A stretch of 59,998 bases of DNA from an uncultured Candidatus Saccharibacteria bacterium (GTDB lineage: Bacteria; Patescibacteriota; Minisyncoccia; Phycocordibacterales; UBA9973): contig CAYIBP010000004.1 of assembly GCA_964361705.1 (NCBI GenBank), forward strand, positions 1 to 59,998, in the 5' to 3' direction. The notes below the pieces were generated by a model that saw nothing but the letters and a program-made list of their open reading frames with translations, was not told the DNA's origin and did not search any database. Shown piece after piece: positions 11,600 to 59,998 of the stretch. Numbering within the stretch: position 1 is the stretch's first letter; each line of letters begins with the position of its first letter. The position numbers were made by a program, and so were the translations under genes.

Positions 11600-11651
11600 A
11601 CAGAAGAAGTTTGATTTGCATTTTTTTCTATATTTTGTACAATATGTACAT

Positions 11652-11903
11652 ATGAAAACAATAAGCATAACAAATGCCAGAAGCAGCATGAAAGCTTTGA
11701 TAGATCGTGTCAAATACCGTGGGGAGGTTTTTGCGATAGGTAGGCGCAATTCTATAGATGCTGTGATTGTTCAGTTTCCTTCAAATTACAACAAAAACAT
11801 TGATGACATTACCAACATCAATGCCAATTCTAGGAGTTTTGATTTTTTGAAAGACGAGCCGGATATTTATAGCAGAGAAGATTTAAAGAAGATATATGCA
11901 TAA
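11652..11903 (+). CDS. Putative antitoxin, Phd/YefM-like N-terminus
   Basis: MKTISITNARSSMKALIDRV..GEVFAI resembles the Phd fold; acidic tail DFLKDEPDIYS; overlaps the toxin start by 8 nt. Confidence 0.7.
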   Translation: MKTISITNARSSMKALIDRVKYRGEVFAIGRRNSIDAVIVQFPSNYNKNIDDITNINANSRSFDFLKDEPDIYSREDLKKIYA

Positions 11904-12225
11904 AGGCAAGATTGTGCTGGTTCCGTTTCCGTTTACTGATTTATCTGGTCAGAAAATTCGTCCTGCTCTGGTATTGAGTGTTGAGAGTAAAGGAGATGAT
12001 TTTATAGCGTGTTTTATCTCCTCAAAGTCAAACGACAAGGTCGGAGCTTTTGATCTGAAAGTCAAAGCAGATAAACAAAATGGTTTGAAAGCAGACTCAA
12101 TCATAAAAGTTTCCAAAATTGCCACACTAGAGAAAAAGATAGCTATAGGAGAGATAGGCGGTTTAGACAGAGCTACCTTCCTAGAATTAAACTTGAAACT
12201 AAAAAAAGTTTTTGGGTTGGAATAG
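11896..12225 (+). CDS. PemK/MazF family toxin (endoribonuclease)
   Basis: GKIVLVPFPFTDLSGQKIRPALVLS...GL..DS.I...KIATL is a typical PemK-like pattern. Confidence 0.88.
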   Translation: MHKGKIVLVPFPFTDLSGQKIRPALVLSVESKGDDFIACFISSKSNDKVGAFDLKVKADKQNGLKADSIIKVSKIATLEKKIAIGEIGGLDRATFLELNLKLKKVFGLE

Positions 12226-12356
12226 GGAGATAAGTGTTTTGTATATTGGTGATCATGATGTATATAAATAGGAAATAATAAATTTCGCCCTAAACGAAAA
12301 ACAGCCCCTCACAAAAACCGGGTGGTAGGGTGTTTTGATGGGGCCGATCGCGCGTG

Positions 12357-12896
12357 TTATCGCCAATCGTCCCTTGTCACCGCGAAGATATTCTGTCCAG
12401 AAGTTGTGATGTTCACATCTTCTTCGTAGACGAACACCTTTGTCATTTCAGCGGCTTTTGCCTCGATCTTTATCCGGCGTTTTCCTGCAAGAACCCCTTT
12501 CAGAGTCTTGGCAAGGGTTCCGTAGCCACTGGATCCTCCAAGCAACTCTTGCTTGCCGTCGACAAAGACGGTAAACGAGATGCCGCTTTTGCCGGAAAGC
12601 GCTTCCGGTGTCGAGGCCGAAATCATGAGGTTTGCCGTTATAGTTTGGTTGGCAGGATCGAGGATCAGACTCGAGTATTTGGCAAACAGGGTCACGACGT
12701 TTCCATCGCTCCCTATTGTGACAAAATACTCTCGGTCGGCAAAGGTGAAAAGCAAAGTGTCGCCCTCGATTTCAATGTTGTGCACTTGCCTTGGCTGCGC
12801 CCAGCCGGTGCCGGTGAGAATGAAAAAAGCAAGGAGGGAAAAAATGAAAAGGCAGACGCGGCCGAAGCCAGAGGTGAGGGTAATTAGCTGGCGCAT
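12357..12896 (-). CDS. GC-rich orphan secreted or membrane-anchored protein (179 aa)
   Basis: ATG 12896 is preceded by AAAAGGAGGTTTCCC; signal-peptide-like N-terminus (…GTGWA|QP); about 50% GC by eye; hairpin plus T-run after the stop. Confidence 0.7.
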   Translation of the reverse strand: MRQLITLTSGFGRVCLFIFSLLAFFILTGTGWAQPRQVHNIEIEGDTLLFTFADREYFVTIGSDGNVVTLFAKYSSLILDPANQTITANLMISASTPEALSGKSGISFTVFVDGKQELLGGSSGYGTLAKTLKGVLAGKRRIKIEAKAAEMTKVFVYEEDVNITTSGQNIFAVTRDDWR

Positions 12897-13056
12897 GGGA
12901 AACCTCCTTTTGCGCTGAGTGAAAATCGGTGAAGCGTGATTTGTTTGGTTTGTAGCAAGCAAACATCGATCTATATAGAATAATCAATATCTATTTGCTA
13001 CAACCCACATTTCAAGGTACTAATACTATACCTGTATATTATCGCACAATATAGGT

Positions 13057-14208
13057 CTATTTGTCAATAGTTGAAGTTGTTTCTTCATTTTCTTCTTCTT
13101 TTTCGCTGTCGCCCTTGATATCTATCTTCCAGCCGGTGAGTTTGGCGGCAAGGCGCACATTTTGGCCACCTTTGCCGATGGCGAGAGATAGCTGATCATT
13201 TGCGACTTCTACTGTCGCGCGGTGCTCTTTTTCATCTACTTCTATAGAAAGCACTTTAGCTGGAGAGATGGCATTTGAAATGAATTCTTTTGGATCTTCT
13301 GACCAAGGTATGATGTCTATTTTTTCCCCGACTAATTCTTGGGTGATGGTGTTTACTCGGGTACCTTTTTGTCCTACGCAAGATCCGACTGCGTCTATGT
13401 GTTCATCATTTGAATGGACCGCGATCTTGGAACGGGAACCAGATTCTCTGGCTACGGATTTTATTTCTACTATTCCATTTTCTATTTCTGGTGCTTCTAT
13501 GGCAAAAAGTTTTTCCAAGAATTTCGGATGAGTGCGAGAGAGACGGAGATTTATTCCTCTTGGTGTGTCTTCAACAGAATACAAGTAAGCCCTTATGCGT
13601 TGGCCTCTTTGTAAATATTCTCTGGGAATTTGTTCTTCTACGGGGAGGATGCCAGTGGCACGATTGAAATCCACAAAGACATTACCTCGTTCTATTTTCT
13701 GTACGATACCTGTGACTATCTCTCCTTCTTTTGTGCCGTATTCATCAAGGATAGATGTTCTCTCTGCTTCGCGGATTTTTTGGATTATGACTTGCTTAGC
13801 TGTTTGTGCTGCTATGCGTCCGTAGTCGTCTTGATTTGGAAGAGGGAATACGATTTCGTCGTTGAGCTCTACATCTTTTTTAATTCTTCGCGCGTCTTCT
13901 AGCATGATATGGTGCTCGCTATTAAAACGCACGCGCTCATCAGCATCTTCTTTTATAGAATATTCAGAATCTTCTTCGCTTTCTGTTTTTGCGATAGTTT
14001 CATCCACAGCTATTTTGATTTGGAAAAATTCAGTTTTACCTGTCTCAAGATCAAGCTTGGCGCGCACTATCTGGCCTTTCTTGCCGTAGTCTTTCTTGTA
14101 GGCGGCAGCCATCGCGGCCTCTATAGCGTCTATGATCTTTTCTTTTGGGATCTTTTTCTCTTCCTCAAGTTGTTCCAAGGCTGATTTGAATGTTTTTATA
14201 TCTAGCAT
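13057..14208 (-). CDS. nusA: Transcription termination/antitermination factor NusA
   Basis: GRIAAQTAKQVI, S1 domain, KH domains (ARESGSRSKIAV, GSCVGQKG) and LSLAIGKGGQNVRLAAKLTGWKIDI. Start set to MLDIK. Confidence 0.97.
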   Translation of the reverse strand: MLDIKTFKSALEQLEEEKKIPKEKIIDAIEAAMAAAYKKDYGKKGQIVRAKLDLETGKTEFFQIKIAVDETIAKTESEEDSEYSIKEDADERVRFNSEHHIMLEDARRIKKDVELNDEIVFPLPNQDDYGRIAAQTAKQVIIQKIREAERTSILDEYGTKEGEIVTGIVQKIERGNVFVDFNRATGILPVEEQIPREYLQRGQRIRAYLYSVEDTPRGINLRLSRTHPKFLEKLFAIEAPEIENGIVEIKSVARESGSRSKIAVHSNDEHIDAVGSCVGQKGTRVNTITQELVGEKIDIIPWSEDPKEFISNAISPAKVLSIEVDEKEHRATVEVANDQLSLAIGKGGQNVRLAAKLTGWKIDIKGDSEKEEENEETTSTIDK

Positions 14209-14297
14209 ATTTTGTTTTTTGTTAAAAATAAAAGCCCTGTTTCGACAGGACTTATACATACAAAACTATATCATTATTGAAGATTTTTTGCAATAGT

Positions 14298-14317
14298 TTA
14301 TCCAGACTTTATCCACA
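14298..14317 (+). promoter_or_regulatory. Tandem DnaA-box-like sites in the divergent nusA / surface-cluster intergenic region
   Basis: TTATCCAGA (14298-14306, one mismatch) and TTATCCACA (14309-14317, perfect). Confidence 0.5.
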
Positions 14318-37717: not shown

Positions 37718-37948
37718 ATGAAAACACCGATGAGGCAGTTTACAGCATTATATAAGAAATCCGGCAGATGGTATGCTGGTTCTATTGAAGAGATTCCAGG
37801 GGTTAATACTCAGGGCAGGACATTAGCTGAAGTTAAAGAAAATCTCAAAGAAGCGCTTCTGCTTATTTTAGAAACCAATCGTTTTTTAGCCAACAAAGAC
37901 AAGAACACTTCATCTGTTACTAGGGAAGTTCTTTTTGTTCCGGCGTAG
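37718..37948 (+). CDS. hicB: HicB family antitoxin (short form)
   Basis: Y.G...EIPGVNTQG.TL.E..ENL.EAL.L pattern. Confidence 0.85.
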   Translation: MKTPMRQFTALYKKSGRWYAGSIEEIPGVNTQGRTLAEVKENLKEALLLILETNRFLANKDKNTSSVTREVLFVPA

Positions 37949-37952
37949 ACCT

Positions 37953-38147
37953 ATGAAACTTGTAGACCTGCTTAAACACCTTCGCAATAATAATTGTATT
38001 TTTGTGAGGGAGGGTGGTTCACATAGTGTCTGGTATAACACGATAACTGGCAGGACTTCTACCGTGCCAAGGCATATTGAAATAAATACTTATACTGGAA
38101 GAAAGATTTGTGAAGATTTGGGAATTCCAATAATCAAAAAGAAATAA
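37953..38147 (+). CDS. hicA: HicA family toxin
   Basis: VREGGSHSVWYN...TVPRH...T...IC..LG dsRBD-like HicA motif. Confidence 0.88.
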   Translation: MKLVDLLKHLRNNNCIFVREGGSHSVWYNTITGRTSTVPRHIEINTYTGRKICEDLGIPIIKKK

Positions 38148-38221
38148 AATCTCCGCTCCGGAGAGGATGTAGCGCCAAAATTTAGGGTGTTAAAACTCCA
38201 GAAATATGGTATAATTAGCTT

Positions 38222-38770
38222 ATGAAAAATGTTGATGAAATCAGCAAAGAGCGAGCCCTGAAACTTTTTGGTAGCTCTGAAATTGAGGTTTTTGAAGTTG
38301 GCACCACGAGGGGTTTGCAACAAATTCATGTCTATCTTTTTGATGGCCTTTATGATTTTGCCGGAGAAATTCGCAAAAAAGATTTAAGCAAAGGTGGTTT
38401 TCGTTTTGCATCTCATTTGTATTTGACTGAAAGTTTGGCGAAGGTGGAGAAAATGCCGGAGGATACATTTGAGGAAATTGTGGCTAAATATGTAGAGATG
38501 AATATAGTACATCCATTTATGGAGGGTAATGGTCGCAGTATGCGGATTTGGCTGGATTTGATTTTGAAAAAAAATCTGAAAAAATGTGTGGACTGGGCGA
38601 AGGTTGATAAAATGGATTATCTGAATGCTATGGGGCGTAGTCCAATAAATGATTTAGAAATTCGTGAGCTTTTGCGTGGCGCTTTGACTGATAAGACAGA
38701 CGATCGTGAAGTTTTTATGAAAGGCATTGAACAATCATACTATTACGAAGAAGTTGATTTGTATAAATGA
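38222..38770 (+). CDS. fic: Fic family protein adenylyltransferase, class III (self-inhibited)
   Basis: Canonical [12 protein letters not shown] motif and C-terminal [10 protein letters not shown] inhibitory-helix-like motif. Confidence 0.9.
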
Positions 38771-38815: not shown

Positions 38816-38844
38816 TTGACAAGACATTCTCTGTATGCTATACT
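38816..38844 (+). promoter_or_regulatory. Strong sigma70 promoter
   Basis: TTGACA, 17 bp, TGc-TATACT. Confidence 0.8.
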
Positions 38845-38974
38845 ATAAAAGTAAGTTAATTTTGTACCTTAAAAATTGTGGTTTTGACGAAAAAGTGTTT
38901 ATTTGTAAGGTTAAATGAATCTTTTTTCGTCTAAATCACACAGTTTCTTATCACATAACTCCAAAGGAGGAGCT

Positions 38975-39112
38975 ATGGGTTTTATCGTTGGAGTACTGGC
39001 ATTCCTTACGGTTTCGTATCTTTTCCCTGAAGCTCATCTTCTCCTTCGTTGCTTGGGGGGGCTTGGGCTTGGAGCCGTAGTAACTATTGCTGTGAAAGAA
39101 TTTCAAAAGTAA
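38975..39112 (+). CDS. Small hydrophobic protein (45 aa, two predicted TM segments)
   Basis: AAAGGAGGAGCT-ATG start, its own promoter and terminator, and higher GC than the flanks. Confidence 0.65.
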   Translation: MGFIVGVLAFLTVSYLFPEAHLLLRCLGGLGLGAVVTIAVKEFQK

Positions 39113-39132
39113 GAATATTCTTTCACAATTTG

Positions 39133-39174
39133 CAGCCCATGATTGATCAGAAATGATTGGTCGTGGGCTGTTGT
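39133..39174 (+). terminator. Terminator-like RNA hairpin
   Basis: 17-bp stem with four G-U pairs and a GAAA loop, followed by TTGT-ATTT. Confidence 0.65.
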
Positions 39175-39200
39175 ATTTATAGGAGGAATTTTTCTAGTTT

Positions 39201-40187
39201 ACTTTGAATTACGAAACTCCACAAGACCACTTTTCCCCAACCAAGCAAAATAACCTCAAGAGTCCTTGATTTTTAAAACGGAAGTTTAATTTTTCTTGTT
39301 AACAACTTTCTCTACCTAAGCACATAGGCGAGAATCGAATAAATGTAATTAGCAAAGTAACCATCAATAGATCTGGGAAACGAGGTTAGAAAAGCGTACA
39401 GCATTTTCAGATTTCTGAAGTTCAACTCAATCAGCATTCTGGTATTGTAGAGATGATACTGGAACTCAGTAATGATTTTCTTCATATTCTTTCTTGGCTT
39501 AGCAAACAGAATTCTTTTGTTTTCAATGTAGAATTCTTTTTCTAAATTTTCTGAAGAATATCCTGCGTCAGCCACAAATATACCATCAATATTTTTGTTC
39601 ATCTTCTGGAATGTTTTTCGATCATTCCCATTTGCAGAAGTAAATGAAATAGCTAAAACATTGCGATTTAAATCAGAGGTCAATGACATTTTAAGCCCAT
39701 AATAGAAGCCTTTTCCTGAATGTCCCCAAGAAGAGAGCATTTTCATAATTTTGTTGTGTCTGAAATTTTTGTTCAGACAAACCGGAATATCGGTGGAGTC
39801 GGTGTATTTAACTATATGAGCATTTTTCTGATTCCATTTTAGAATTGCGTTTAAGACCCTAAGCGCTTGCAATGCAAATCGATTCATCTGAATACAAAGT
39901 GTCTTGTAACATTCCTTAAGTTGGAATATCTCCCAGATTTTTTTCTTGGTGGGGATGCCAGTATTTTGTTTGAAGAGAGCGAGCGCGATTGTTTCTTCTC
40001 CAGAGATTGCCAATTTTCGACCAGTGCTTTTGCTTAATTTCAGTTGTAATTGTTTTGAGAAAAATTGAACTTTTGTTAATATGTCAGTATACAGTTGAAT
40101 GACTGTGTTCATAACAAAAAGCACCTCACGGCGCTTTTTGTATTTTAACCTATTTTAATTGAAAAGTGGAGTTTCGTAATTCAAAGT
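39201..40187 (-). mobile_element. Insertion sequence, IS982-like (987 bp)
   Basis: Perfect 22-bp terminal IRs ACTTTGAATTACGAAACTCCAC (39201-39222 and 40166-40187). Flanking direct repeat AGTTT, or TAGTTTA if the ends are drawn 1 bp inward. Confidence 0.88.
39312..40112 (-). CDS. DDE transposase, IS982-like
   Basis: DSTDIPVC, G.YYGLK, ADAGY and Y..R..IE..F..LK motifs; GAGGTG upstream of ATG 40112. Confidence 0.85.
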   Translation of the reverse strand: MNTVIQLYTDILTKVQFFSKQLQLKLSKSTGRKLAISGEETIALALFKQNTGIPTKKKIWEIFQLKECYKTLCIQMNRFALQALRVLNAILKWNQKNAHIVKYTDSTDIPVCLNKNFRHNKIMKMLSSWGHSGKGFYYGLKMSLTSDLNRNVLAISFTSANGNDRKTFQKMNKNIDGIFVADAGYSSENLEKEFYIENKRILFAKPRKNMKKIITEFQYHLYNTRMLIELNFRNLKMLYAFLTSFPRSIDGYFANYIYSILAYVLR

Positions 40188-40225
40188 AGTTTACTTTTCC
40201 ATATTTTTTAGTATTATATAAACAT

Positions 40226-40445
40226 AAGCGTTGAAGAGGCTATCACCTCAGAGCTTTTGGGAAGAAATACTTTGTTGATATAGCCCGCCTGCGCGCGAGG
40301 CTACGGCGAGGTAAAGTAGAACCCTATGAATTAAGTGTCTGCCCAGCGCAAGTTGGTTTGGGCGGAAATTAAGGTGGTACCGCGGGAGAGTCCCGTCCTT
40401 AGATAGTAATTTTTTAATTATTATTTTAGGACGGGATTTTTTATT
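40226..40445 (+). ncRNA. T-box riboswitch leader of ileS (Ile AUC specifier)
   Basis: GAGG-CUAUCA-CCUC mini stem I; GGAAGAA/AGUAGAACC stem II elements; AAGG-UGGUACC-GCGGGA antiterminator (40371-40400); alternative terminator at 40391-40436 plus U-run. Confidence 0.9.
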
Positions 40446-40523
40446 TATCAATTTGACCTTTCCCCTCTCCTTTGGGGAGGGGAAAGGGGTGGGGTGTATT
40501 GTAAGGAATATATTTTAAAACAC

Positions 40524-43500
40524 ATGCAAGAAAAAGAAGAAAACCACCGCCAAGGCGGGGTGAACACAAAATCAGAAGTAGCTCTGAGGGAAGAAAAGAT
40601 TATGTATTTTTGGCGCGAGCATAAGACTTTTGAAAAAAGTTTGGAAAAGGATTCGCCAAAGGGCAATTATGTTTTTTATGATGGACCGCCTTTTGCCACG
40701 GGACAGATGCATTATGGGCATATATTGGGCAGTACTGCCAAGGATGTCATCGGGCGGTATCAGACGATGCGTGGATATCATGTGCCTCGCAAGTGGGGTT
40801 GGGATTGTCATGGTTTGCCGATAGAAAATATTGTAGAGAAAGAGCTCGGCATCGCAGGACACAATGAGATAGAAAAATACGGCATAGACAAATTCGTGGA
40901 GTATGCGCGGAGCAAAGTTTTGGAATACGATGCGGATTGGCGAGTGGGCATAGAGCGCATAGGCAGATGGGTAGATTTTGATGGTGGGTACAAGACGATG
41001 GACAATGATTTCATTGAGTCTGTGTGGTGGGCGCTCGCGGAATTAAATAAAAAAGGTTTGATATACGAGGGCGTGCGAGTGCTGGCGTATTGCGCGAGAT
41101 GCGAGACGCCGATAGCAAACTCCGAAATAGCGATGGACAACAGCTACAAAGACATCGCTGATATTTCTGTGTATGTGAAGTTTGAGTTGGAAGATGAGTT
41201 TGGTACAGAAAGTCCCTCGCTTCGCTCGGGACGATCAAATACTTCGTATTTGATCGCGTGGACCACAACGCCGTGGACATTGCCGGGCAATACTGCCATA
41301 GCGGTGAATAAAGATATTGAATATGTGAAAGTGGAAGCTGATGGGGTGAATTATATTTTGGCAGAAGCAACATTAGGAAATGTTTTTAAAGAAAAAAGTT
41401 TCAAAATTTTGGAAAAATTCAAAGGTGATAAACTTGTCGGCAGAAAATACAAGCCGGTTTTTCCATATTATCTGGATGCCGACATGCCGAACAAAGAAAA
41501 TATTTACAAAGTCTGGCATGCGGATTTTGTGACGACAGATATGGGTACAGGGATAGCGCACGAGGCGCCGGCTTTTGGCGAAGACGATATGAACCTCGCT
41601 CGAGAACACAAAATACCTTGGATCATACATGTGGACGAGACGGGCAGATTTAAAAGCGAAGTAAAAGATTTCTCAGGTCTCAAAGTAAAACCAAAGGACA
41701 CTGCTGAAGACAAAGACATGCATCTGCGCTCTGATATAGAGGTCATAAAATATTTACAGGCAAATGGATCGTATTTTGCCAAAGAAAAAATAACACACTC
41801 ATATCCGCATTGTATGCGTTGTGATACGCCGATCATTTACTACGCGCTTCCGTCTTGGTTTGTGGATATACAAAAATCAAAACCGATAGTGCAAAAAACT
41901 GCCGAATTTATAAATTGGGTACCGGAGCACTTGAAAGAGGGCAGATATAAAAATATTGTAGATAGCGCGCCAGACTGGAATATCTCGCGCAATAGATATT
42001 GGGCTTCGCCTTTGCCTGTGTGGAAGTGTGACACTTGCGACAATCAAGAATTTATAAGCTCTCTGGAAGACTTAAAAGAAAAATCCGTAAAATCCGGCAA
42101 CAAATATTTCGTGATGCGACATGGGGAATCTGAAGGAAATATAACAGGCGTAATTAGTTCATACTCTGAGCACACAGATCATTTAACAGAATTGGGCAAG
42201 AAACAAGTATTTGAAACATCGCAAAAGTTAAAAGATAAAAATATAAATTTGATTATTTATTCTGATTTGGCTCGAACAAGAGAAACCGCCGAGATAATAA
42301 AAAAGGAACTCGGTATTCTGGATGAGAATTTTATTTCAACTAAAAAAATTAGGGAAATTTCCACTGGAGTTTGGGACGGAAAAAGATGGACTGAATATGT
42401 TGCTTTTATAAAGAACGAGGGAATGCAGAGGTATCTTTATCGCCCAGACAATGGTGAATCGGGAGAAGATGTAAAAGCCAGGATGGCTAGGTTTCTTTAT
42501 GAAATAGATAGCGAATATAGAGATAAAAATATTCTGATAATAACTCACGAAGGTCCAGCTAGGATACTTTATGTAGGTGCTCTCGGTTTGAGCTCTTCTC
42601 AAATGGAGGAGAAATTAAATAATAAAGAGATAATCGTTTTTAAAAATGCGGAAGTTAATGGGTTGAATTTTGTCCCATTTCCCCACAATGCAAACTTTGA
42701 GCTTGATATGCACAGGCCATATATAGACGCTGTAAAATTAAAATGTAAATGCGGTGGTGAGATGACGCGTATCACGGAGGTTTTGGATTGTTGGTTTGAG
42801 TCAGGGTCTATGACTTTTGCGGAGGATCATTATCCTTTTGAGAGTGCTGACTGGCAAGAAAAGAATTTCCCAGCTGGATTCGTGGCGGAATACATAGCGC
42901 AGACTCGTACGTGGTTTTATTATATGCATGTTGTTTCGGCTCTGCTTTTCAATCACGCGCCGTTTAAAAATGTCGTGACCACAGGCACCCTTCGCGCTGA
43001 AGACGGACAAAAGATGTCCAAGTCCAAGCACAATTATCCTGATCCGTGGGTTTTCATAGACAAATACGGCGTGGATGCTTTGCGTATATATCTGATGTCT
43101 TCACCACTGATGAAAGGCGAAGATGCGAATTTCTCTGAAAAGCTCGTGCAGGAAATATCTAGTAAGATTGTCGGCAGATTTCACAACACGATGCTTTTTT
43201 ATGAATTGTATCGAGATAAAAATCTAGAAGATGTTTTTGAAAAAGATTTAAAAAATGTTTTGAACAAATGGATAGTCGGCAGACTCGATGAAGTGATAAC
43301 AGAAGTGACAAAAGGCATGGAAGCGTACGATATGGCGATGGCTACTAGGCCGCTTGATCTGTTTGTGGACGATCTCTCTACTTGGTATTTGCGTAGATCA
43401 CGTGATGCCATCAAAGATGGTGATAAAGAAACAAAACAAACACTGTATTTCGTACTAAAAACTTTTGCCAGACTGATGGCTCCATTTGCGCCGTTTATAG

Positions 43501-44078
43501 CAGAAGAAGTTTGGAGAAATTTGCGCGGAGATACGGATGAGGAGAGCGTGCATTTGGTAGAATGGCCAGAGGCAGGTTCTCTCGTGTCAGATAAAAATAA
43601 AATAACGCAAGATATGGCAGATGCTAGGCGCATTGTGTCGCTAGGGCTTGAAGCTCGACAGAGAACGAATATAAAAGTCCGTCAGCCATTGTCAAAAATA
43701 AGCGTAAAGACGTATTCGCTCTCGCGAGAATACGAAGAACTTATAAAAGACGAGTTGAATGTCAAAGAATTAAAAGAAGATAAAAATTTGGAAAATGAAG
43801 TCCTGCTCGATACAGATATAACAGAAGAATTAAAACAAGAAGGCGACTATCGCGAGCTCTTGCGCGGTCTGCAAGATTTGCGAAAGAAACTCGGACTCAC
43901 ACCGAAAGACCTCGTCACCTTGTCCCTAGAATGCGATGATGCTGGTAAAAGACTTGTCTCAAAATACGAAGAGAATTTATTGAAAACTGTGCTTGTCTCA
44001 AAAGTAACTTACGAGAAAAATAACGGCGAAGAAATTCTCGTCGGCGAATTATCTTTTAAGGTGAAGATGGAGAAATAA
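40524..44078 (+). CDS. ileS: Isoleucine--tRNA ligase (type 2) with inserted histidine-phosphatase domain
   Basis: FYDGPPFATG.MHYGH, GWDCHGLP, WTTTPWTLPGN, DWNISRNRYW and KMSKS; insert with RHGE...SDLARTRETA...THEG. Confidence 0.95.
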   Translation: MQEKEENHRQGGVNTKSEVALREEKIMYFWREHKTFEKSLEKDSPKGNYVFYDGPPFATGQMHYGHILGSTAKDVIGRYQTMRGYHVPRKWGWDCHGLPIENIVEKELGIAGHNEIEKYGIDKFVEYARSKVLEYDADWRVGIERIGRWVDFDGGYKTMDNDFIESVWWALAELNKKGLIYEGVRVLAYCARCETPIANSEIAMDNSYKDIADISVYVKFELEDEFGTESPSLRSGRSNTSYLIAWTTTPWTLPGNTAIAVNKDIEYVKVEADGVNYILAEATLGNVFKEKSFKILEKFKGDKLVGRKYKPVFPYYLDADMPNKENIYKVWHADFVTTDMGTGIAHEAPAFGEDDMNLAREHKIPWIIHVDETGRFKSEVKDFSGLKVKPKDTAEDKDMHLRSDIEVIKYLQANGSYFAKEKITHSYPHCMRCDTPIIYYALPSWFVDIQKSKPIVQKTAEFINWVPEHLKEGRYKNIVDSAPDWNISRNRYWASPLPVWKCDTCDNQEFISSLEDLKEKSVKSGNKYFVMRHGESEGNITGVISSYSEHTDHLTELGKKQVFETSQKLKDKNINLIIYSDLARTRETAEIIKKELGILDENFISTKKIREISTGVWDGKRWTEYVAFIKNEGMQRYLYRPDNGESGEDVKARMARFLYEIDSEYRDKNILIITHEGPARILYVGALGLSSSQMEEKLNNKEIIVFKNAEVNGLNFVPFPHNANFELDMHRPYIDAVKLKCKCGGEMTRITEVLDCWFESGSMTFAEDHYPFESADWQEKNFPAGFVAEYIAQTRTWFYYMHVVSALLFNHAPFKNVVTTGTLRAEDGQKMSKSKHNYPDPWVFIDKYGVDALRIYLMSSPLMKGEDANFSEKLVQEISSKIVGRFHNTMLFYELYRDKNLEDVFEKDLKNVLNKWIVGRLDEVITEVTKGMEAYDMAMATRPLDLFVDDLSTWYLRRSRDAIKDGDKETKQTLYFVLKTFARLMAPFAPFIAEEVWRNLRGDTDEESVHLVEWPEAGSLVSDKNKITQDMADARRIVSLGLEARQRTNIKVRQPLSKISVKTYSLSREYEELIKDELNVKELKEDKNLENEVLLDTDITEELKQEGDYRELLRGLQDLRKKLGLTPKDLVTLSLECDDAGKRLVSKYEENLLKTVLVSKVTYEKNNGEEILVGELSFKVKMEK

Positions 44079-51731: not shown

Positions 51732-53191
51732 AAAAAGATAGCTTTTATATTACCACCACACTGCCTTATGTAAACGCTCCACTTCATATGGGGCATGCGC
51801 TAGAATTTGTGCGCGCAGATGCGATAGTTCGCTACAAGAAACTTTTAGGGTTTGATGTGTTTTTCAATACTGGTACAGATGAGCACGGAATAAAGATTTA
51901 CAACAAGGCAAAGGAGCAGGGTCTAGATCCGCAGGAGTTTGTGGATAGGGGTTTTGAGATTTTTAAAGAACAGCTCAAGATGTTTGGTATCAGTGAAGAC
52001 GTGCATTTTGTGCGTACGACGGACACGCATCACATCGAAGCTGCGCAGGAATTTTGGAAACGCGTAGATAAGAATGGATATATCTATAAAAAAAACTACG
52101 AGGCAAAGTATTGCGTGGGTTGCGAGAGTGAAAAGACAGACAGCGAGCTAGACGAAGCAGGTGAATGCCCACTGCACCCCGGACGCAAACCCGAAACTAT
52201 CAGTGAAGAGAATTATTTCTTCAAATATTCAGCTTTTAGCGAGAAACTTTTAGAGTTTTATAAAAAGAATCCGACATTTATCGTGCCTGATTTTCGTTTC
52301 AATGAAATTAAAAATTTCGTAAAAAACGGCTTGCAGGATTTTTCTATATCAAGGTTGAAAAGCAAAATGCCTTGGGGTGTGGGTGTGCCAGGGGACGATG
52401 AACATGTGATGTACGTGTGGTTTGATGCGCTTACGAATTATATTTCTACCTTGGGTTGGCCCTTTGCTGACGCTCAGGGTAAACCAGAAGAAAGTTCTTT
52501 TGAAAAATATTGGATAAATGGTAATCCTACTCAATACTGTGGCAAAGACAATACACGTTTCCAAGGTGCTATGTGGCAGGCGATGTTGATGGCATCTGGG
52601 CTACCGAATTCACACCAGATAGTGGTAAATGGTTTTATCACCGGTGAGGGCGGAATACGAATGTCTAAAACTATAGGCAATGTCGTGGATCCGCGCGATG
52701 TCGTAGCCCTATACGGCACAGACGCTCTGCGATATTTTCTACTTCGAGAAATTAGTAGTTTTGAAGACGGTCCTTTTACACTTGAACGATTCAAAGATGC
52801 TTATAATTCCGGCCTTGCAAATGGGCTGGGGAATCTGTCTTCGAGGATTTTAACTTTATCGGAAAAACATCTGGAAAGGACGCCTGAGATCCCAGAGAAC
52901 ACAATACCCCAAGAATTTTTTGAATATTTAGAAAAGTTTGATCTGCAAAAAGCGACAGAATTCATCTGGAGCAAGATAACAGAGCTAGACAAAAGAATCC
53001 AAGAGACCGAACCGTTCAAGATCATAAAGTTCGATGAAGCTAAAGGCAAAGAAATGATAAAAAATTTAGTTTTGGATTTGTACACCATAGCCAGAATGTT
53101 AAATCCACTTCTACCCGAAACTTTCGAAAAAATAAAAAATTTAATAAAACAAAACAAAAAACCCGAAGACCCGCTTTTTTTGCGAAAATAA
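51728..53191 (+). CDS. metG: Methionine--tRNA ligase
   Basis: YITTTLPYVNAPLHMGH, TGTDEHG, YVWFDAL, RMSKTIG and DALRYFLL. Confidence 0.96.
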   Translation: MKKDSFYITTTLPYVNAPLHMGHALEFVRADAIVRYKKLLGFDVFFNTGTDEHGIKIYNKAKEQGLDPQEFVDRGFEIFKEQLKMFGISEDVHFVRTTDTHHIEAAQEFWKRVDKNGYIYKKNYEAKYCVGCESEKTDSELDEAGECPLHPGRKPETISEENYFFKYSAFSEKLLEFYKKNPTFIVPDFRFNEIKNFVKNGLQDFSISRLKSKMPWGVGVPGDDEHVMYVWFDALTNYISTLGWPFADAQGKPEESSFEKYWINGNPTQYCGKDNTRFQGAMWQAMLMASGLPNSHQIVVNGFITGEGGIRMSKTIGNVVDPRDVVALYGTDALRYFLLREISSFEDGPFTLERFKDAYNSGLANGLGNLSSRILTLSEKHLERTPEIPENTIPQEFFEYLEKFDLQKATEFIWSKITELDKRIQETEPFKIIKFDEAKGKEMIKNLVLDLYTIARMLNPLLPETFEKIKNLIKQNKKPEDPLFLRK

Positions 53192-53192
53192 T

Positions 53193-54152
53193 ATGTATGA
53201 AAGAGTAACAAATTTTAATATAAAGAAAGGAGAAAAACAACCAAATGATTTCGATAGCTTTTTTCAAAAGTCTTCATTTGGAAAAGCAATCAATAAAGAA
53301 ATTAACAGGAAAGGAAGAGATGATACAGGGGTTTTTTTTGATAAGAGTTTAGAAAAAAGATTAACAGAAAAAGAAAAACAAGAATTAATTAATACTATAA
53401 AACAAATTTTTTCTTTACTTGAAAAATTACTACCAGATTTTTTAGAAGAGCTGGGTTTAAGCACAGAATATTTTGAGGCTATGCCTAAGCTTGGTATTGA
53501 AATCAAAAATTCATTTCTCTCCAATCTTTTTAAAGAAGGTTATCATATTCCAGTTTTTGACAAGTTGATTTTATCTGAAAAGATAATTAACAGCAAGTTC
53601 TTTTTTAGGACATTGATCCATGAATTTTCTCATAGTATATGTAAAAGCGTTATTAAATATTCGCCAGATTTTAAAAGGACAATTATGCAGACGGGTTTAT
53701 CTATAAGAATGACCGAAGGTAAACCGGATAAAAGATTGGGTCATACAGAAACTGTAAACGAAGGCATGACTGATATTTTTGCGAACAGATTATATTTATA
53801 TTTAATTGAAAAAGATCCGTCTTTGTTTGAAAAATATAATCAACCGAAGACTTATGAGCCTGGGTACAAAGAGGAAGTTCAATTTATTGAAAGAATGGCA
53901 GTTTTGATTTCTAGTGAAAATGAACCATATGAACAAGTTTTAAAAGAACTGATGCAACATTATTTGGATGGTAATGCTGGTTTGTTTTACAAAAAACTCT
54001 TTTTGAAGTTTAATCCAGATGATAAGAAAAGAATTTTAAAACTTTTAAATAAATCCAATTTTAGGAATATGTCTCTTTTTTCATCTAAAAAGATAATGTT
54101 TAGAAAAATTCATAAGGCAATTGATTCAATTACACAGGGTAGCCCTGTGTAA
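53193..54152 (+). CDS. Putative zinc metallopeptidase (HExxH...NEGxT, gluzincin-like)
   Basis: TLIHEFSH, with a downstream VNEGMTD third-ligand motif. Confidence 0.6.
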   Translation: MYERVTNFNIKKGEKQPNDFDSFFQKSSFGKAINKEINRKGRDDTGVFFDKSLEKRLTEKEKQELINTIKQIFSLLEKLLPDFLEELGLSTEYFEAMPKLGIEIKNSFLSNLFKEGYHIPVFDKLILSEKIINSKFFFRTLIHEFSHSICKSVIKYSPDFKRTIMQTGLSIRMTEGKPDKRLGHTETVNEGMTDIFANRLYLYLIEKDPSLFEKYNQPKTYEPGYKEEVQFIERMAVLISSENEPYEQVLKELMQHYLDGNAGLFYKKLFLKFNPDDKKRILKLLNKSNFRNMSLFSSKKIMFRKIHKAIDSITQGSPV

Positions 54153-54157
54153 TTTAC

Positions 54158-54328
54158 ATAAAAACTGACGAAACCAAAGGCAGGGAAATGATAAAAAATT
54201 TAGTTTTGGATTTGTACACCATAGCCAGAATGTTAAATCCACTTCTACCCGAAACTTTCGAAAAAATAAAAAATTTAATAAAACAAAACAAAAAACCAGC
54301 GACACCTTTGTTTTTAAGGAAAGAATAA
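54158..54328 (+). pseudogene. Duplicated 3' end of metG (56 codons)
   Basis: The 113-bp core at 54185-54297 is identical to 53051-53163. Flanks are homologous but diverged (IKTDETKGRE vs IKFDEAKGKE; KPATPLFLRKE vs KPEDPLFLRK). Confidence 0.88.
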
Positions 54329-56840: not shown

Positions 56841-56925
56841 TTTTTTTTATGTTTTTATACTATAAAAAGAAGTTGTCTCCAAGGCAACTTCATGGTTCCT
56901 AACAATATGACAACCGGAGAAGACC

Positions 56926-57099
56926 ATGTCTATCATCAGCGATGAATCTTCTACGACGCCCAAGACCGAGGCCGAGATTGCAGCCGAGGTCAAGGCCGCG
57001 GAGGAATTCAGAAGATGGATCACTCAGGTGGCGGTGTTTTCCCCCTTCAACCCACCACCGGAAGCTCCAAAAGAAAAAAGCACAGGTTACATTTTTTGA
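56926..57099 (+). CDS. GC-rich orphan small protein (57 aa), below the ORF-track cutoff
   Basis: GGAGAAGACC-ATG start; MSIISDESSTTPKTEAEIAAEVKAAEEFRRWITQVAVFSPFNPPPEAPKEKSTGYIF; upstream TATACT and a downstream hairpin with T-run (about 57118-57146). Confidence 0.55.
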   Translation: MSIISDESSTTPKTEAEIAAEVKAAEEFRRWITQVAVFSPFNPPPEAPKEKSTGYIF

Positions 57100-57175
57100 A
57101 TTTCTTTCTTTGCCATGAAAGGTCATTCTACGAATGGCCTTTTTTAACTTTGATTTTGTATTGATTAAAAAGTAT

Positions 57176-57917: not shown

Positions 57918-59998
57918 ATGCAAAAATCGTTTAGATTGCGTACTTCGGTCACATTTTTAATAATAATCTCAATGCTCCTGCCATCAGTCGGTCCTGTTTT
58001 AGCGCAGGAAGAAGTAAATGAACCTATCGCTAGGCAAGACCTAGTAATTGATTCTGCTCCTTCTGATACAGAAGATACTGCAGTAGATGAAAGTAATACA
58101 GAAACCGATGTCCCTAAAGAATCAGAAGATACTACTACTTCTGATCCAGCCTCTACTCTGGCTCCCGTACAGCCAAAGATTGATACAAAGATCCGTCCAG
58201 AAGTAGATGAGACTACAGGCGCTTTGCGGTATTCATATCCGATTGAAATTCCACAAGGCAGATCTGGCATGACTCCAAATTTGTCCTTGAATTACAATTC
58301 TGAAAACAAGGATAATCAGTCTGCATTCGGTTACGGTTGGGATTTATCCATCCCCCACATAAGTCGTATAAACAAACATGGAACAAATGAACTTCACGAT
58401 AGATATGATTTTGTTTCTTCTATAGATGGAGAGTTGGAAAAAGTAAATGATACTACATATAGAGCGAAAATAGAAAATGGTAGTTTCAATCAATACACAT
58501 TCATAGACAACGTCTGGACTCTAAAAACCAAAGACGGTCAGACGTATATCTTTGGAGACAATACTTCTAGCAGACAAGATGATACGACACAAGAAAAAAT
58601 ATATAAATGGATGCTCTCCAGAGAATTGGACGCAAATGAAAACATCATTAAATATTCATATTTCAAAGATCAAGGGCAGATATATCCTGAAAAGATTGCG
58701 TATACTTTAAGTTCAACAATAGGTGGGAAATTCGAGGTTGAGTTTGTGAGAGAAGGGAGGACAGACACCATAGAATCATACTCTACGGCTTTTTCTGTGA
58801 AAACAAATTACAGAGTGAACGAAATACAGGCGAAGATAAATGGAACGCAGAGCAGAAAATACATTCTTGATTACACAGTCGGAGACAATGGAGTGAGGTC
58901 TGTACTTTCTGGTATCACTAAATCAGCAGTCAGCGAGTCAGGCATTATCACGACTTTGCCGAGGATGGGGTTTGAGTATAGTAAAAGTGGTTCTACTATT
59001 TATGGTGACACAACCAGACTGAATACGGATGAATTGTATGCTTCAAGTGATATGAATGGACTTGTTGCAGGAGATATAAATGGAGATGCGTATCCTGATA
59101 TGCTAAAAGCTTACGAATATAACTGTTATAATTACTTTTTAAGTAAAAAAACATTTTTATTTAATCCTACTCTGAATCTGTTCCAGGAAAGTCCTACATA
59201 TTTAGTACCAGAAAGTATCATCAACCTTACTCGTTTTTGCTATAGTAAACTTTACGGAGGTACTAGGATTTTAGATGTGAATAGTGATGGTATGGGAGAT
59301 CTTATGAGGACCCCTAACTCTAATTCAAACCCAGCGAGAGAGATAAACAATGGTGATTCTTGGATCCAAGATGCTAAAGGAGATTATCGCGTGGACTACA
59401 ATTTAAATACCTCGTGGTCTTTACATTCACAAGATCTAAATGGAGATGGATTGATAGATTATATACAAGATTCTCCAGACAATGTGAGTGGATGGAACAC
59501 AACGACTTCTATGAACGACGGTTTTGGTTTTGAATACGTATCAAATATTAAACATCATGGAGCAGGGACTAAACCATATTCTTACACCCCAGTTTTTACC
59601 GGAAAGAATGATCATGCCGTGTTTGATATAAATGGTGACAACTTGCCGGATATCGTGGAATCTACAGAGAGGATTTGTTGTGGTTGGAATTCTACTGTCA
59701 CTATGATTCAAAATGTATATATCAATAAAGGGGACTCTTGGTATCTTGATCCATCTTATGTACTCCCAAGAGGATTGATTTTCTATTCAATTAATGCGAG
59801 TGGTGAGTCTAACCAACCTTTTGATATATCTGATTTTAATAATGATGGCTTGAATGATATCTTCAACAGAGAAAATATATACATTAATCAAGGGAAAAGT
59901 TTTATTCCTTATCTTATGAGGCCAAGTTTGCAAGGTGATCTGGGTTCTGCCCGAAATTGCTCGTGTCAAAATCCATATTTCTTGTTTGATATAAATGC
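57918..59998 (+). CDS. Partial (3' truncated) secreted SpvB/TcB-N plus FG-GAP-repeat protein, probable Rhs/YD-repeat polymorphic toxin
   Basis: Absent from the ORF track because there is no stop in the window; open for at least 693 codons by hand translation. Signal peptide (…PVLA|QEE); TGALRYSYPIEIP.GR.G.TP.LSL.YNS...G.GW; five D.N.DG/D..D repeats; promoter TTGCTT-17bp-TGgTATAAT (57842-57870). Confidence 0.85.
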   Translation, partial: MQKSFRLRTSVTFLIIISMLLPSVGPVLAQEEVNEPIARQDLVIDSAPSDTEDTAVDESNTETDVPKESEDTTTSDPASTLAPVQPKIDTKIRPEVDETTGALRYSYPIEIPQGRSGMTPNLSLNYNSENKDNQSAFGYGWDLSIPHISRINKHGTNELHDRYDFVSSIDGELEKVNDTTYRAKIENGSFNQYTFIDNVWTLKTKDGQTYIFGDNTSSRQDDTTQEKIYKWMLSRELDANENIIKYSYFKDQGQIYPEKIAYTLSSTIGGKFEVEFVREGRTDTIESYSTAFSVKTNYRVNEIQAKINGTQSRKYILDYTVGDNGVRSVLSGITKSAVSESGIITTLPRMGFEYSKSGSTIYGDTTRLNTDELYASSDMNGLVAGDINGDAYPDMLKAYEYNCYNYFLSKKTFLFNPTLNLFQESPTYLVPESIINLTRFCYSKLYGGTRILDVNSDGMGDLMRTPNSNSNPAREINNGDSWIQDAKGDYRVDYNLNTSWSLHSQDLNGDGLIDYIQDSPDNVSGWNTTTSMNDGFGFEYVSNIKHHGAGTKPYSYTPVFTGKNDHAVFDINGDNLPDIVESTERICCGWNSTVTMIQNVYINKGDSWYLDPSYVLPRGLIFYSINASGESNQPFDISDFNNDGLNDIFNRENIYINQGKSFIPYLMRPSLQGDLGSARNCSCQNPYFLFDIN

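Follow-up and report, generated by a model that had tools for sequence, protein, structure and literature searches.

A shared leader with a boxA-like box and a long hairpin precedes two unrelated orphan genes in a Nomurabacteria genome from groundwater

How are solitary orphan genes that open with a Shine-Dalgarno (SD) sequence expressed in a genome whose native genes do without one? This question is raised by the first 59,998 nucleotides of contig CAYIBP010000004.1 (referred to as the window, i.e., the whole stretch of DNA that was analyzed), in which an initial annotation had discerned three unrelated orphan genes, rich in guanine and cytosine (GC), as one class of exchangeable cassettes with boxA-like leaders. 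The contig, which is 60.5 kb long and nearly all of which lies in the window, was assembled from metagenomes of Hainich groundwater (ENA ERZ1292623 and others; ERZ1292617), and its NusA is 83–85% identical to NusA of Candidatus Nomurabacteria metagenome-assembled genomes (Paceibacteria, Patescibacteria). The window has an overall GC content of 38% and yielded no tRNA, rRNA or Rfam matches at gathering score. Two of the genes, i.e., orphan 1 (12357..12896, minus strand) and orphan 2 (38975..39112, plus strand), whose open reading frames (ORFs) are unrelated to each other, were found to share one leader module. The reading we favor, with a probability of roughly 45%, is that both genes are driven by a Nus-factor boxA module resembling an rRNA operon (rrn) leader, with a processing-type stem, that is placed before accessory genes mostly for exported proteins.

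The way in which genes start in this genome makes such leaders conspicuous. A GGAG-type SD was present in none of the 51 native genes of the window, and 17 of the 51 carried a –10 hexamer ending 4–12 nt 5′ of their ATG (vs. 5.5% of random positions), so that about one-third of the genes look leaderless and mRNAs of this kind seem to be common throughout the Nomurabacteria genome (the leaderless look of clpP and ppa also holds in relatives). With an SD defined as a complement of at least 4 nt to a presumed CCUCC anti-SD at 4–9 nt before the start, orphans 1 and 2 carry a canonical SD and are the sole genes of the window with a real one, i.e., AAAGGAGG at 4–6 nt 5′ of the ATG (–12.5 and –11.8 kcal/mol with the anti-SD). 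The proposed combination of a leader with an SD is, in other words, real and unusual for an SD-free genome.

The regions 5′ of orphans 1 and 2 are collinear across ca. 170 nt, in the order of a TTGACA-N17/18 promoter, a GTACCTTRAAA..TGTGG box, a hairpin of 23–27 bp that opens with UGUGG, AAATCAC, TTWTCAC, AAAGGAGG and ATG. Both the box motif and the downstream pattern AAATCAC-N20-28-AAGGAG matched twice in the window, against 0.01 matches expected for each. The motifs singled out by the initial annotation, i.e., GTACCTTGAAATGTGG (13005–13020, minus strand) and GTACCTTAAAAATTGTGG (38864–38881, plus strand), indeed occupy the positions assigned to them, 17 and 19 nt after the –10 of modules 1 and 2, respectively. 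Nevertheless, the similarity of both leaders exceeds these motifs, as a long hairpin is situated at the same place in each of them. Both promoters are near-consensus (11/12 each).

In module 1 (minus strand), the promoter (13038..13067) consists of a –35 TTGACA (13062–13067) that overlaps the nusA stop codon, an 18-nt spacer with TGn, and a –10 GATAAT (13038–13043). The boxA-like box GTACCTTGAAAT (13009..13020) is predicted to be unpaired (P of 0.65), while the long RNA hairpin (12946..13007; 23 pairs, of which five G·U) begins right behind it, in the GU-rich UGUGGGUUG. The 3′ leader (12903..12942) subsequently contains AAATCAC (12936–12942), TTTTCAC (12919–12925), and the SD AAAGGAGG (12903–12910). 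Module 2 (plus strand) is built likewise, with a TTGACA-17-TATACT promoter (38816..38844) that has TG before the –10, the boxA-like box GTACCTTAAAAA (38864..38875; predicted to be unpaired, P of 0.85), a long RNA hairpin (38877..38940; 27 pairs, of which five G·U; z of –4.3) with UGUGGUUUU and AAAUCACA at its base, and a 3′ leader (38933..38970) holding AAATCAC (38933–38939), TTATCAC (38948–38954), and the SD AAAGGAGG (38963–38970). The boxes of the window read GTACCTTGAAA and GTACCTTAAAA. Both leaders are AT-rich like the host (GC of 0.30–0.36), and the hairpin interiors are unrelated in sequence between conserved flanks.

Leaders of the same build were also encountered beyond the window, when 853 kb of nusA neighborhoods from 80 related species (913 kb with the window) were examined for leadered SD-led genes. 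Five of them were found in species whose NusA is 63–71% identical, namely in L194 (CAZHUT01; two copies), L179 (CAYNHU01), L215, and L162 (CAZUAA01). The L194 copies a and b (boxes ATTCCTTGAAAA and GTTCTTTGAGAG) belong to adjacent genes, and each continues into a hairpin and a lipoprotein gene; the leaders of L179 (box GTTCTTTGAAAA) and L215 (box GTTCATTGAAAA) are hairpin-containing orthologs of L194 copy a, and a hairpin likewise follows the L162 box (GTTCTTTAAAAA). Each of the five starts with a TTGACA/TGn-TATAAT promoter with the box 9–21 nt after the –10, and the promoter spacers are also similar between species. Throughout the family the box lies 9–25 nt after a consensus –10 in the sense orientation, the transcription start being derived from the sequence. 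The gap between box and hairpin is 0–4 nt in four of these five leaders and in both window copies (13 nt in L162), and the hairpin base reads (U)GUUGG(G)UU ... AA(A)YCAAC. Copies without an SD have their start codon just 3–15 nt after the stem, while a strong SD follows the hairpin in the Nomurabacteria copies. Moreover, box-only versions, or versions whose hairpin is short, occur upstream of secreted-protein genes in L150 (CAWJHU01; two paralogues), L171, L210, and L145, and the 3′ part of the L150 copies (ATCACATTTAAC..AGGAGG) is similar to that of window leader 2. The consensus box of the family is GTTCTTTGAAAA (box type GTTCTTTGAAAA/GACCTTGAAA). The module is reused before unrelated accessory ORFs, both within and between genomes. 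Most of the downstream products have signal peptides or lipoboxes; since the link of the leader with exported proteins was non-significant in a crude Fisher test, the wording "mostly exported" is purely descriptive. Homologue expansion of the lipoprotein family behind the L194 and L179 leaders gave just three proteins.

Every hairpin was much more stable than its shuffled counterparts (z of –4 to –6.4), and the sense strand folded better than the antisense strand in all six cases tested, by 8–14 kcal/mol in five of them (e.g., –25.8 vs. –14.1 kcal/mol for module 1 and –25.9 vs. –12.7 kcal/mol for module 2). This strand preference, together with the three to five G·U pairs per stem, indicates an RNA structure on the mRNA strand rather than a DNA palindrome. 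Since sequence-based alignment with RNAalifold was unable to align the stems, the three orthologous leaders (i.e., L194 copy a, L179, and L215) were paired by hand, anchored on their conserved UUAAUUG/CAAUUAA core. Of nine inner pairs, three had changed on both sides with pairing kept (U-A/G-C, C-G/A-U, and U-A/U·G/C-G) and two more had changed through wobble; the apical 38–66 nt were unalignable. In the predicted ensemble the box is mostly unpaired (P(unpaired) of 0.65–0.85) and the SD is partly paired with the early coding region. Sequestration of the SD by the box was considered as well and rejected, since it appeared in only one minimum free energy structure, whereas in the partition function the box stays unpaired and the SD finds its pairing partner downstream. 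The Rfam 15 covariance models gave no gathering-score match in the window, and for the hairpins at E≤10 they returned only sub-threshold microRNA and small RNA noise; the leader element is absent from Rfam. A literature search on translation signals in Patescibacteria found no paper among those listed, the description of the element itself not having been searched for.

The combination of the box, a TTGAC 25–60 nt ahead of it, and a fold of ≤–25 kcal/mol behind it occurred seven times in the 913 kb (vs. ca. 0.1 per shuffle), and six of these matches were true members, the seventh being a false positive in a coding region. Likewise, a match of ≥10/12 to GTTCTTTGAAAA was present after 11 of 279 strong promoters, as opposed to 12 of 5000 random sites. 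Searches by exact pattern were less productive: GTACCTTRAAA-N0-4-TGTGG-N40-70-AAATCAC had no match in the GTDB species genomes and one chance match, inside a phage-like contig, in the JGI metagenomes and IMG/VR. As real relatives differ by 1–3 bases, this pattern is too strict; the short pattern alone was swamped by chance matches, and the 3′-leader pattern gave one chance match.

The blank outcome of these exact scans, and the presence of just two copies in 60 kb, could also mean that a promoter-leader segment was recently duplicated locally and has no dedicated function, its likeness to the relatives and to boxA arising by chance. The population is clonal (with identical sequence across DNA runs) and offers no variation to read. 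A recent duplication is, however, not expected to leave unrelated hairpin sequences between conserved flanks, and it leaves unexplained the five additional copies in species at 63–71% NusA identity, with their compensatory stem changes. We regard this explanation as the least probable of those considered for the module.

Whether the box is a boxA was approached by comparison with the rrn operons of E. coli (rrnB), Priestia megaterium (pBM400), and Listeria monocytogenes and with a mycoplasma spacer primer. The 16S-23S spacers of Priestia and Listeria contain GTTCTTTGAAAAC, in which the boxA GTTCTTTGAAAA is embedded, and their rrn leaders read GAACTTTGAAAAC (boxA GAACTTTGAAAA) and GACCTTTGAAAAC (boxA GACCTTTGAAAA), respectively; the conserved mycoplasma spacer primer is GTTCTTTGAAAACTGAAT. 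In the E. coli rrnB leader, P2 and the boxB hairpin are followed by TGCTCTTTAACAA and, 14 nt further, by TGTGTGGGCAC; TGCTCTTTAACAA is boxA, and the GU-rich TGTGTGGG is boxC and the 5′ strand of the 16S processing stem. The L179 box is identical to the Priestia/Listeria spacer boxA at 12 of 12 positions, and the L162 box GTTCTTTAAAAA agrees at 11 of 11 positions with the published consensus GYTCTTTAANA (PMC5725501). The window box GTACCTTGAAA is degenerate; it comes closest to GACCTTTGAAAA of the Listeria leader but is one U shorter, and the GU-rich TGTGGGTTG, comparable to the E. coli boxC TGTGTGGG, follows it directly. The proposed boxA likeness is accordingly better borne out with the relatives, whose boxes are identical or near-identical to Gram-positive rrn boxA, than in the window by itself. 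The box is also predicted to be single-stranded and to lie, on the sense strand, at the 5′ end of the transcript.

Indeed, a number of observations weigh against the boxA reading. The window boxes score just 9/12 against the Gram-positive boxA and are 2–3 positions off GYTCTTTAANA, and orthologous boxes vary within the U-tract (CUUU, CCUU, CAUU). A U/A-rich 12-mer is, moreover, not very rare at 38% GC, as the box allowing at most one mismatch gave 17 matches against ca. 7.5 expected. No rRNA genes were present in the window or the 80 related loci, and viral scans for the box together with a 16S start gave nothing. Among the window ORFs nusA is present, while nusB, rho, and rnc are not. The stems close over 40–70 nt and would therefore not need a Nus-type long-range chaperone. 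Finally, no RNA-seq run containing the locus was found. On the other hand, the literature describes both boxA elements ahead of protein-coding genes and, between lambda nutL and the SD of N, a structured spacer (PMC5725501). Of the readings available, the boxA idea is the best, and it remains a resemblance.

Part of the same evidence would fit a lineage-specific 5′ untranslated region (5′UTR) element that acts independently of Nus factors for highly expressed exported proteins, be it as an mRNA stabilizer, as a processing site for RNase III, Y, or J, or through ribosome standby or translation control, its boxA likeness then resulting from U/A-rich convergence. Such an element could account for sense-specific and covarying hairpins behind consensus promoters, for the signal peptides or lipoboxes on most downstream products, for the start codons 3–15 nt past the stem in SD-less copies, and for the tolerance of the box to changes where E. 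coli boxA has critical positions. It would nevertheless require the agreement of L179 with rrn spacer boxA (12/12) and that of L162 with GYTCTTTAANA (11/11) to be a striking coincidence; the exported-protein link is non-significant in the crude test used, and the hairpin is not at the extreme 5′ end, unlike that of classical stabilizers. We consider this explanation rather unlikely, though it is the main rival of the boxA reading.

Alternatively, the box might be a DNA operator or promoter-proximal element of an envelope-gene regulon next to which the hairpin is incidental. Its location 9–25 nt after the –10 is a frequent repressor-binding zone, GTTCTTTGAAAA holds a TTC-N3-GAA inverted repeat, and promoter spacers are alike between species. 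However, neither the window copies nor L162 retain the TTC/GAA symmetry, the distance to the –10 is variable while the orientation is always sense, and the neighboring structure is RNA-specific, with G·U pairs, all of which makes an operator improbable.

If the boxA reading is followed, a consensus sigma-70 promoter (TTGACA with a TGn-extended –10) would start the transcript, and the box would act as BoxA onto which NusB-S10 could load, with NusA and NusG, as it leaves the RNA polymerase. Such loading may result in processive, termination-resistant transcription of the long, structured, and untranslated leader, as in rrn operons and at lambda nut. The hairpin would correspond to the processing stem of rRNA or, in the lambda N leader, to the RNase III hairpin, bringing the BoxA complex near the start site and probably setting mRNA processing or stability. 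The SD, in turn, might provide the 30S recruitment that a leadered mRNA requires where other genes are leaderless or SD-free. In its widest form, the idea would be that Paceibacteria copied the front end of the rRNA operon (i.e., promoter, BoxA, and GU-rich helix strand) onto accessory genes, mostly for exported proteins, creating a Nus-factor regulon that couples their transcription, processing, and SD-dependent translation to the machinery of ribosome synthesis; this we deem doubtful.

The module shares with the leader and spacer BoxA of rRNA operons a strong promoter followed by a boxA-type sequence on the nascent RNA, a family consensus equal to the Priestia and Listeria spacer boxA, and a GU-rich segment after the box that supplies one strand, the 5′ one, of a long helix. 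It differs in preceding short protein-coding genes, with an SD and start codon to follow, in the degenerate (9/12) state of the window copies, and in its helix, which adjoins the box and closes over 40–70 nt instead of the ca. 1.5 kb of the rRNA operon. The lambda nutL-N leader has the same order of promoter, BoxA-type box, large structured spacer, SD, and ORF, and RNase III relieves lambda N autorepression. In contrast to lambda, the module lacks a BoxB/N-type partner and is chromosomal and multi-copy, in Patescibacteria. At nutL, a Nus-bound box can affect translation across a structured spacer (PMC5725501).

A boxA is likewise located upstream of E. coli and Salmonella suhB, rpsJ, and ParE-like toxin genes and of CRISPR arrays (in the 5′UTR in the case of the mRNAs; Baniulyte et al. 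2017), and the effective distance from box to start is also short in the module once its hairpin is folded. Those cellular mRNAs, however, mostly serve Nus-factor autoregulation, with a box less than 50 nt away from the start and without a long hairpin, whereas the module has unrelated accessory targets, mostly for exported proteins and several per genome. A further parallel concerns mRNA stabilizers. The ompA and slpA (S-layer) mRNAs carry 5′UTR stabilizer hairpins at or near their 5′ end and have in common with the module a strong promoter, a long structured leader, an accessible ribosome binding site, and exported products, but they lack a conserved single-stranded box in front and show no sequence relation to it.

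Gene-expression control is almost unexplored in the Patescibacteria (candidate phyla radiation), which are uncultivated. If the box were truly a BoxA, Nus-factor control would reach targets of a new class in a new phylum, and one would see how genes gained by horizontal transfer come under an expression module specific to the host. The regulon outlined above, if real, would be the first one based on BoxA beyond Nus autoregulation, rRNA, phage, and CRISPR as well as the first class of cis-regulatory RNA defined in Patescibacteria. If the box were not a BoxA, the leader would still be an uncatalogued conserved RNA motif with a clear covariation signal. Either way, it is a candidate for driving expression in genetic tools yet to be developed for Patescibacteria.

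With regard to the genes themselves, orphan 1 encodes a 179-aa protein with a signal peptide and is the GC-richest 540 nt of the window (GC of 0.51; GC at third codon positions (GC3) of 0.60). Its protein has weak, repeat-level similarity to MBG_2 and Listeria-Bacteroides repeat (Flg_new) domains of giant surface proteins, and the homologue search found none beyond its own population. A looser terminator-like hairpin than those of the other two orphans follows the gene (12292..12345, minus strand; GGCCCC...GGGGCU and then GUUUUUCGUUU). A 177-aa frame is open on the opposite strand (12354–12887, plus strand) and is probably a by-product of the local high GC and not a gene; SD, signal peptide, and a GC3 of 0.60 all belong to the minus-strand frame.

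In several relatives the leaderless ppa directly follows nusA, with the ppa –35 inside the nusA 3′ end. In the window, ca. 2 kb are inserted between the two, comprising orphan 1 with its module, a MazF/Phd pair, and a low-GC ORF of 150 aa; orphan 1 is compositionally foreign and was inserted here with a mazEF-like module. Judged by their N-terminal sequence, the genes after nusA in relatives (L133–L156) encode either the soluble pyrophosphatase (ppa) or an apparent membrane H+-pyrophosphatase, i.e., an apparent lineage-level swap at one locus. The true start of nusA is probably the ATG at 14208 (minus strand), and its leader (14209–14300, minus strand) holds a hairpin GTCCTGTCGAAACAGGGC and then TTTTATTTTT just before the start codon, resembling an attenuator-type terminator. 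A GTCCGTCGAAAG...GGGCTTTTATTTT element is also situated 5′ of nusA in L161, L165, L175, and L207, which suggests conserved NusA autoregulation.

Orphan 2 encodes a 45-aa hydrophobic peptide (GC of 0.45; GC3 of 0.35). Its GC3 is host-like and its GC is reached by 12% of all 150-nt windows, and exact look-up, in place of a homology search, matched it on Hainich contigs only. An intrinsic terminator (39132..39181, plus strand) with an 18-bp stem containing G·U pairs and a T-rich tail follows the gene, right after which a complete insertion sequence (IS) element has inserted (39200–40188; perfect 23-nt terminal inverted repeats at 39200–39222 and 40166–40188; DDE_Tnp_1 transposase at 39312–40124, minus strand). 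Toxin-antitoxin genes adjoin both orphans, i.e., Phd/MazF (11616–12225) at orphan 1 and HicB/HicA with Fic/Doc (37718–38770) at orphan 2. Both loci are accessory, variable islets.

For locus 2 alone, this setting among HicAB and Fic/Doc genes and beside an IS, together with a 45-aa hydrophobic product, a strong SD, and a long folded leader, could point to a type I toxin-like membrane peptide whose 5′UTR controls translation and whose antitoxin would be an antisense RNA. On the opposite strand, however, there is no promoter-like site, orphan 2 has no Pfam match, and the leader is also located before a 179-aa secreted protein and before lipoproteins, so that we hold such a toxin to be unlikely. 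The proposed pool of exchangeable cassettes found no support; all that was seen is an insertion hot spot beside an IS and toxin-antitoxin genes. Integron gene cassettes are likewise small, solitary, and mutually unrelated ORFs that depend on a promoter and have a foreign composition; here, however, each gene has a promoter and terminator of its own, and the shared element lies 5′ of the ORF and is AT-rich and host-like. No integrase was seen among the Pfam-annotated neighbors, the hairpins 3′ of the genes look like terminators, and neither attC-like sites nor flanking repeats were noticed, no dedicated attC search having been made.

Orphan 3 (56926..57099, plus strand), a 57-aa ORF after rpsR with a GC of 0.51 and a GC3 of 0.57, matched only itself in the homologue search. 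Its upstream region (56856..56925, plus strand) comprises a –10-like TATACT, a 10-bp hairpin (56869–56891), GTTCCTAACAAT (56895–56906), and a weak GGAG (56916–56919), and no –35 was found. The GTTCCTAACAAT box is more than two mismatches away from the other two boxes and is not enriched. TATACTATAAAA, the –10 context, is indeed exactly common to loci 2 and 3, as had been noted, and is the sole element they share. As a member of the module family orphan 3 was rejected, for it has no –35, only a weak GGAG, a short hairpin in front of the box instead of behind it, and a box unlike the others. The class therefore counts two genes and not three. An intrinsic terminator does follow orphan 3 (57117..57145, plus strand; a 12-bp stem and a T run). 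Orphan status was borne out for orphans 1 and 3, which have no homologue beyond their own population, and for orphan 2 goes no further than its Hainich-only look-up matches.

High GC, finally, was discarded as a trait of the class: it applies to orphans 1 and 3, whereas orphan 2 and several of the relatives' members are host-like. Genes that are GC-rich and SD-led, encode exported proteins, and have a promoter of their own were also noticed in other Paceibacteria, namely in L204 (8420–8520; GC of 0.53 vs. 0.37; leader ...GACCTTGAAAGGAGGTC ATG; downstream of nusA-ppa) and in L138 (2600–2700, minus strand; GC of 0.55 vs. 0.43).

Elsewhere in the window, two strong hairpins (40391–40436 and the G/C-rich 40457–40487, CCTTTCCCCTCTCC/GGGGAGGGGAAAGG) without Rfam match are located upstream of ileS (40494–44078) and may constitute a leader or attenuator. 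Right after metG, a 319-aa ORF (53193–54152; GC of 28%; no Pfam match) is flanked by 171-nt direct repeats that are 87% identical (53023–53193 and 54157–54327), and it looks like the metG 3′ end was duplicated by an insertion. At the right end, a long ORF with a signal peptide (57919–59998) runs off the window, for which reason this region is empty in ORF lists; its repeats appear similar to repeats known from large toxins or adhesins.

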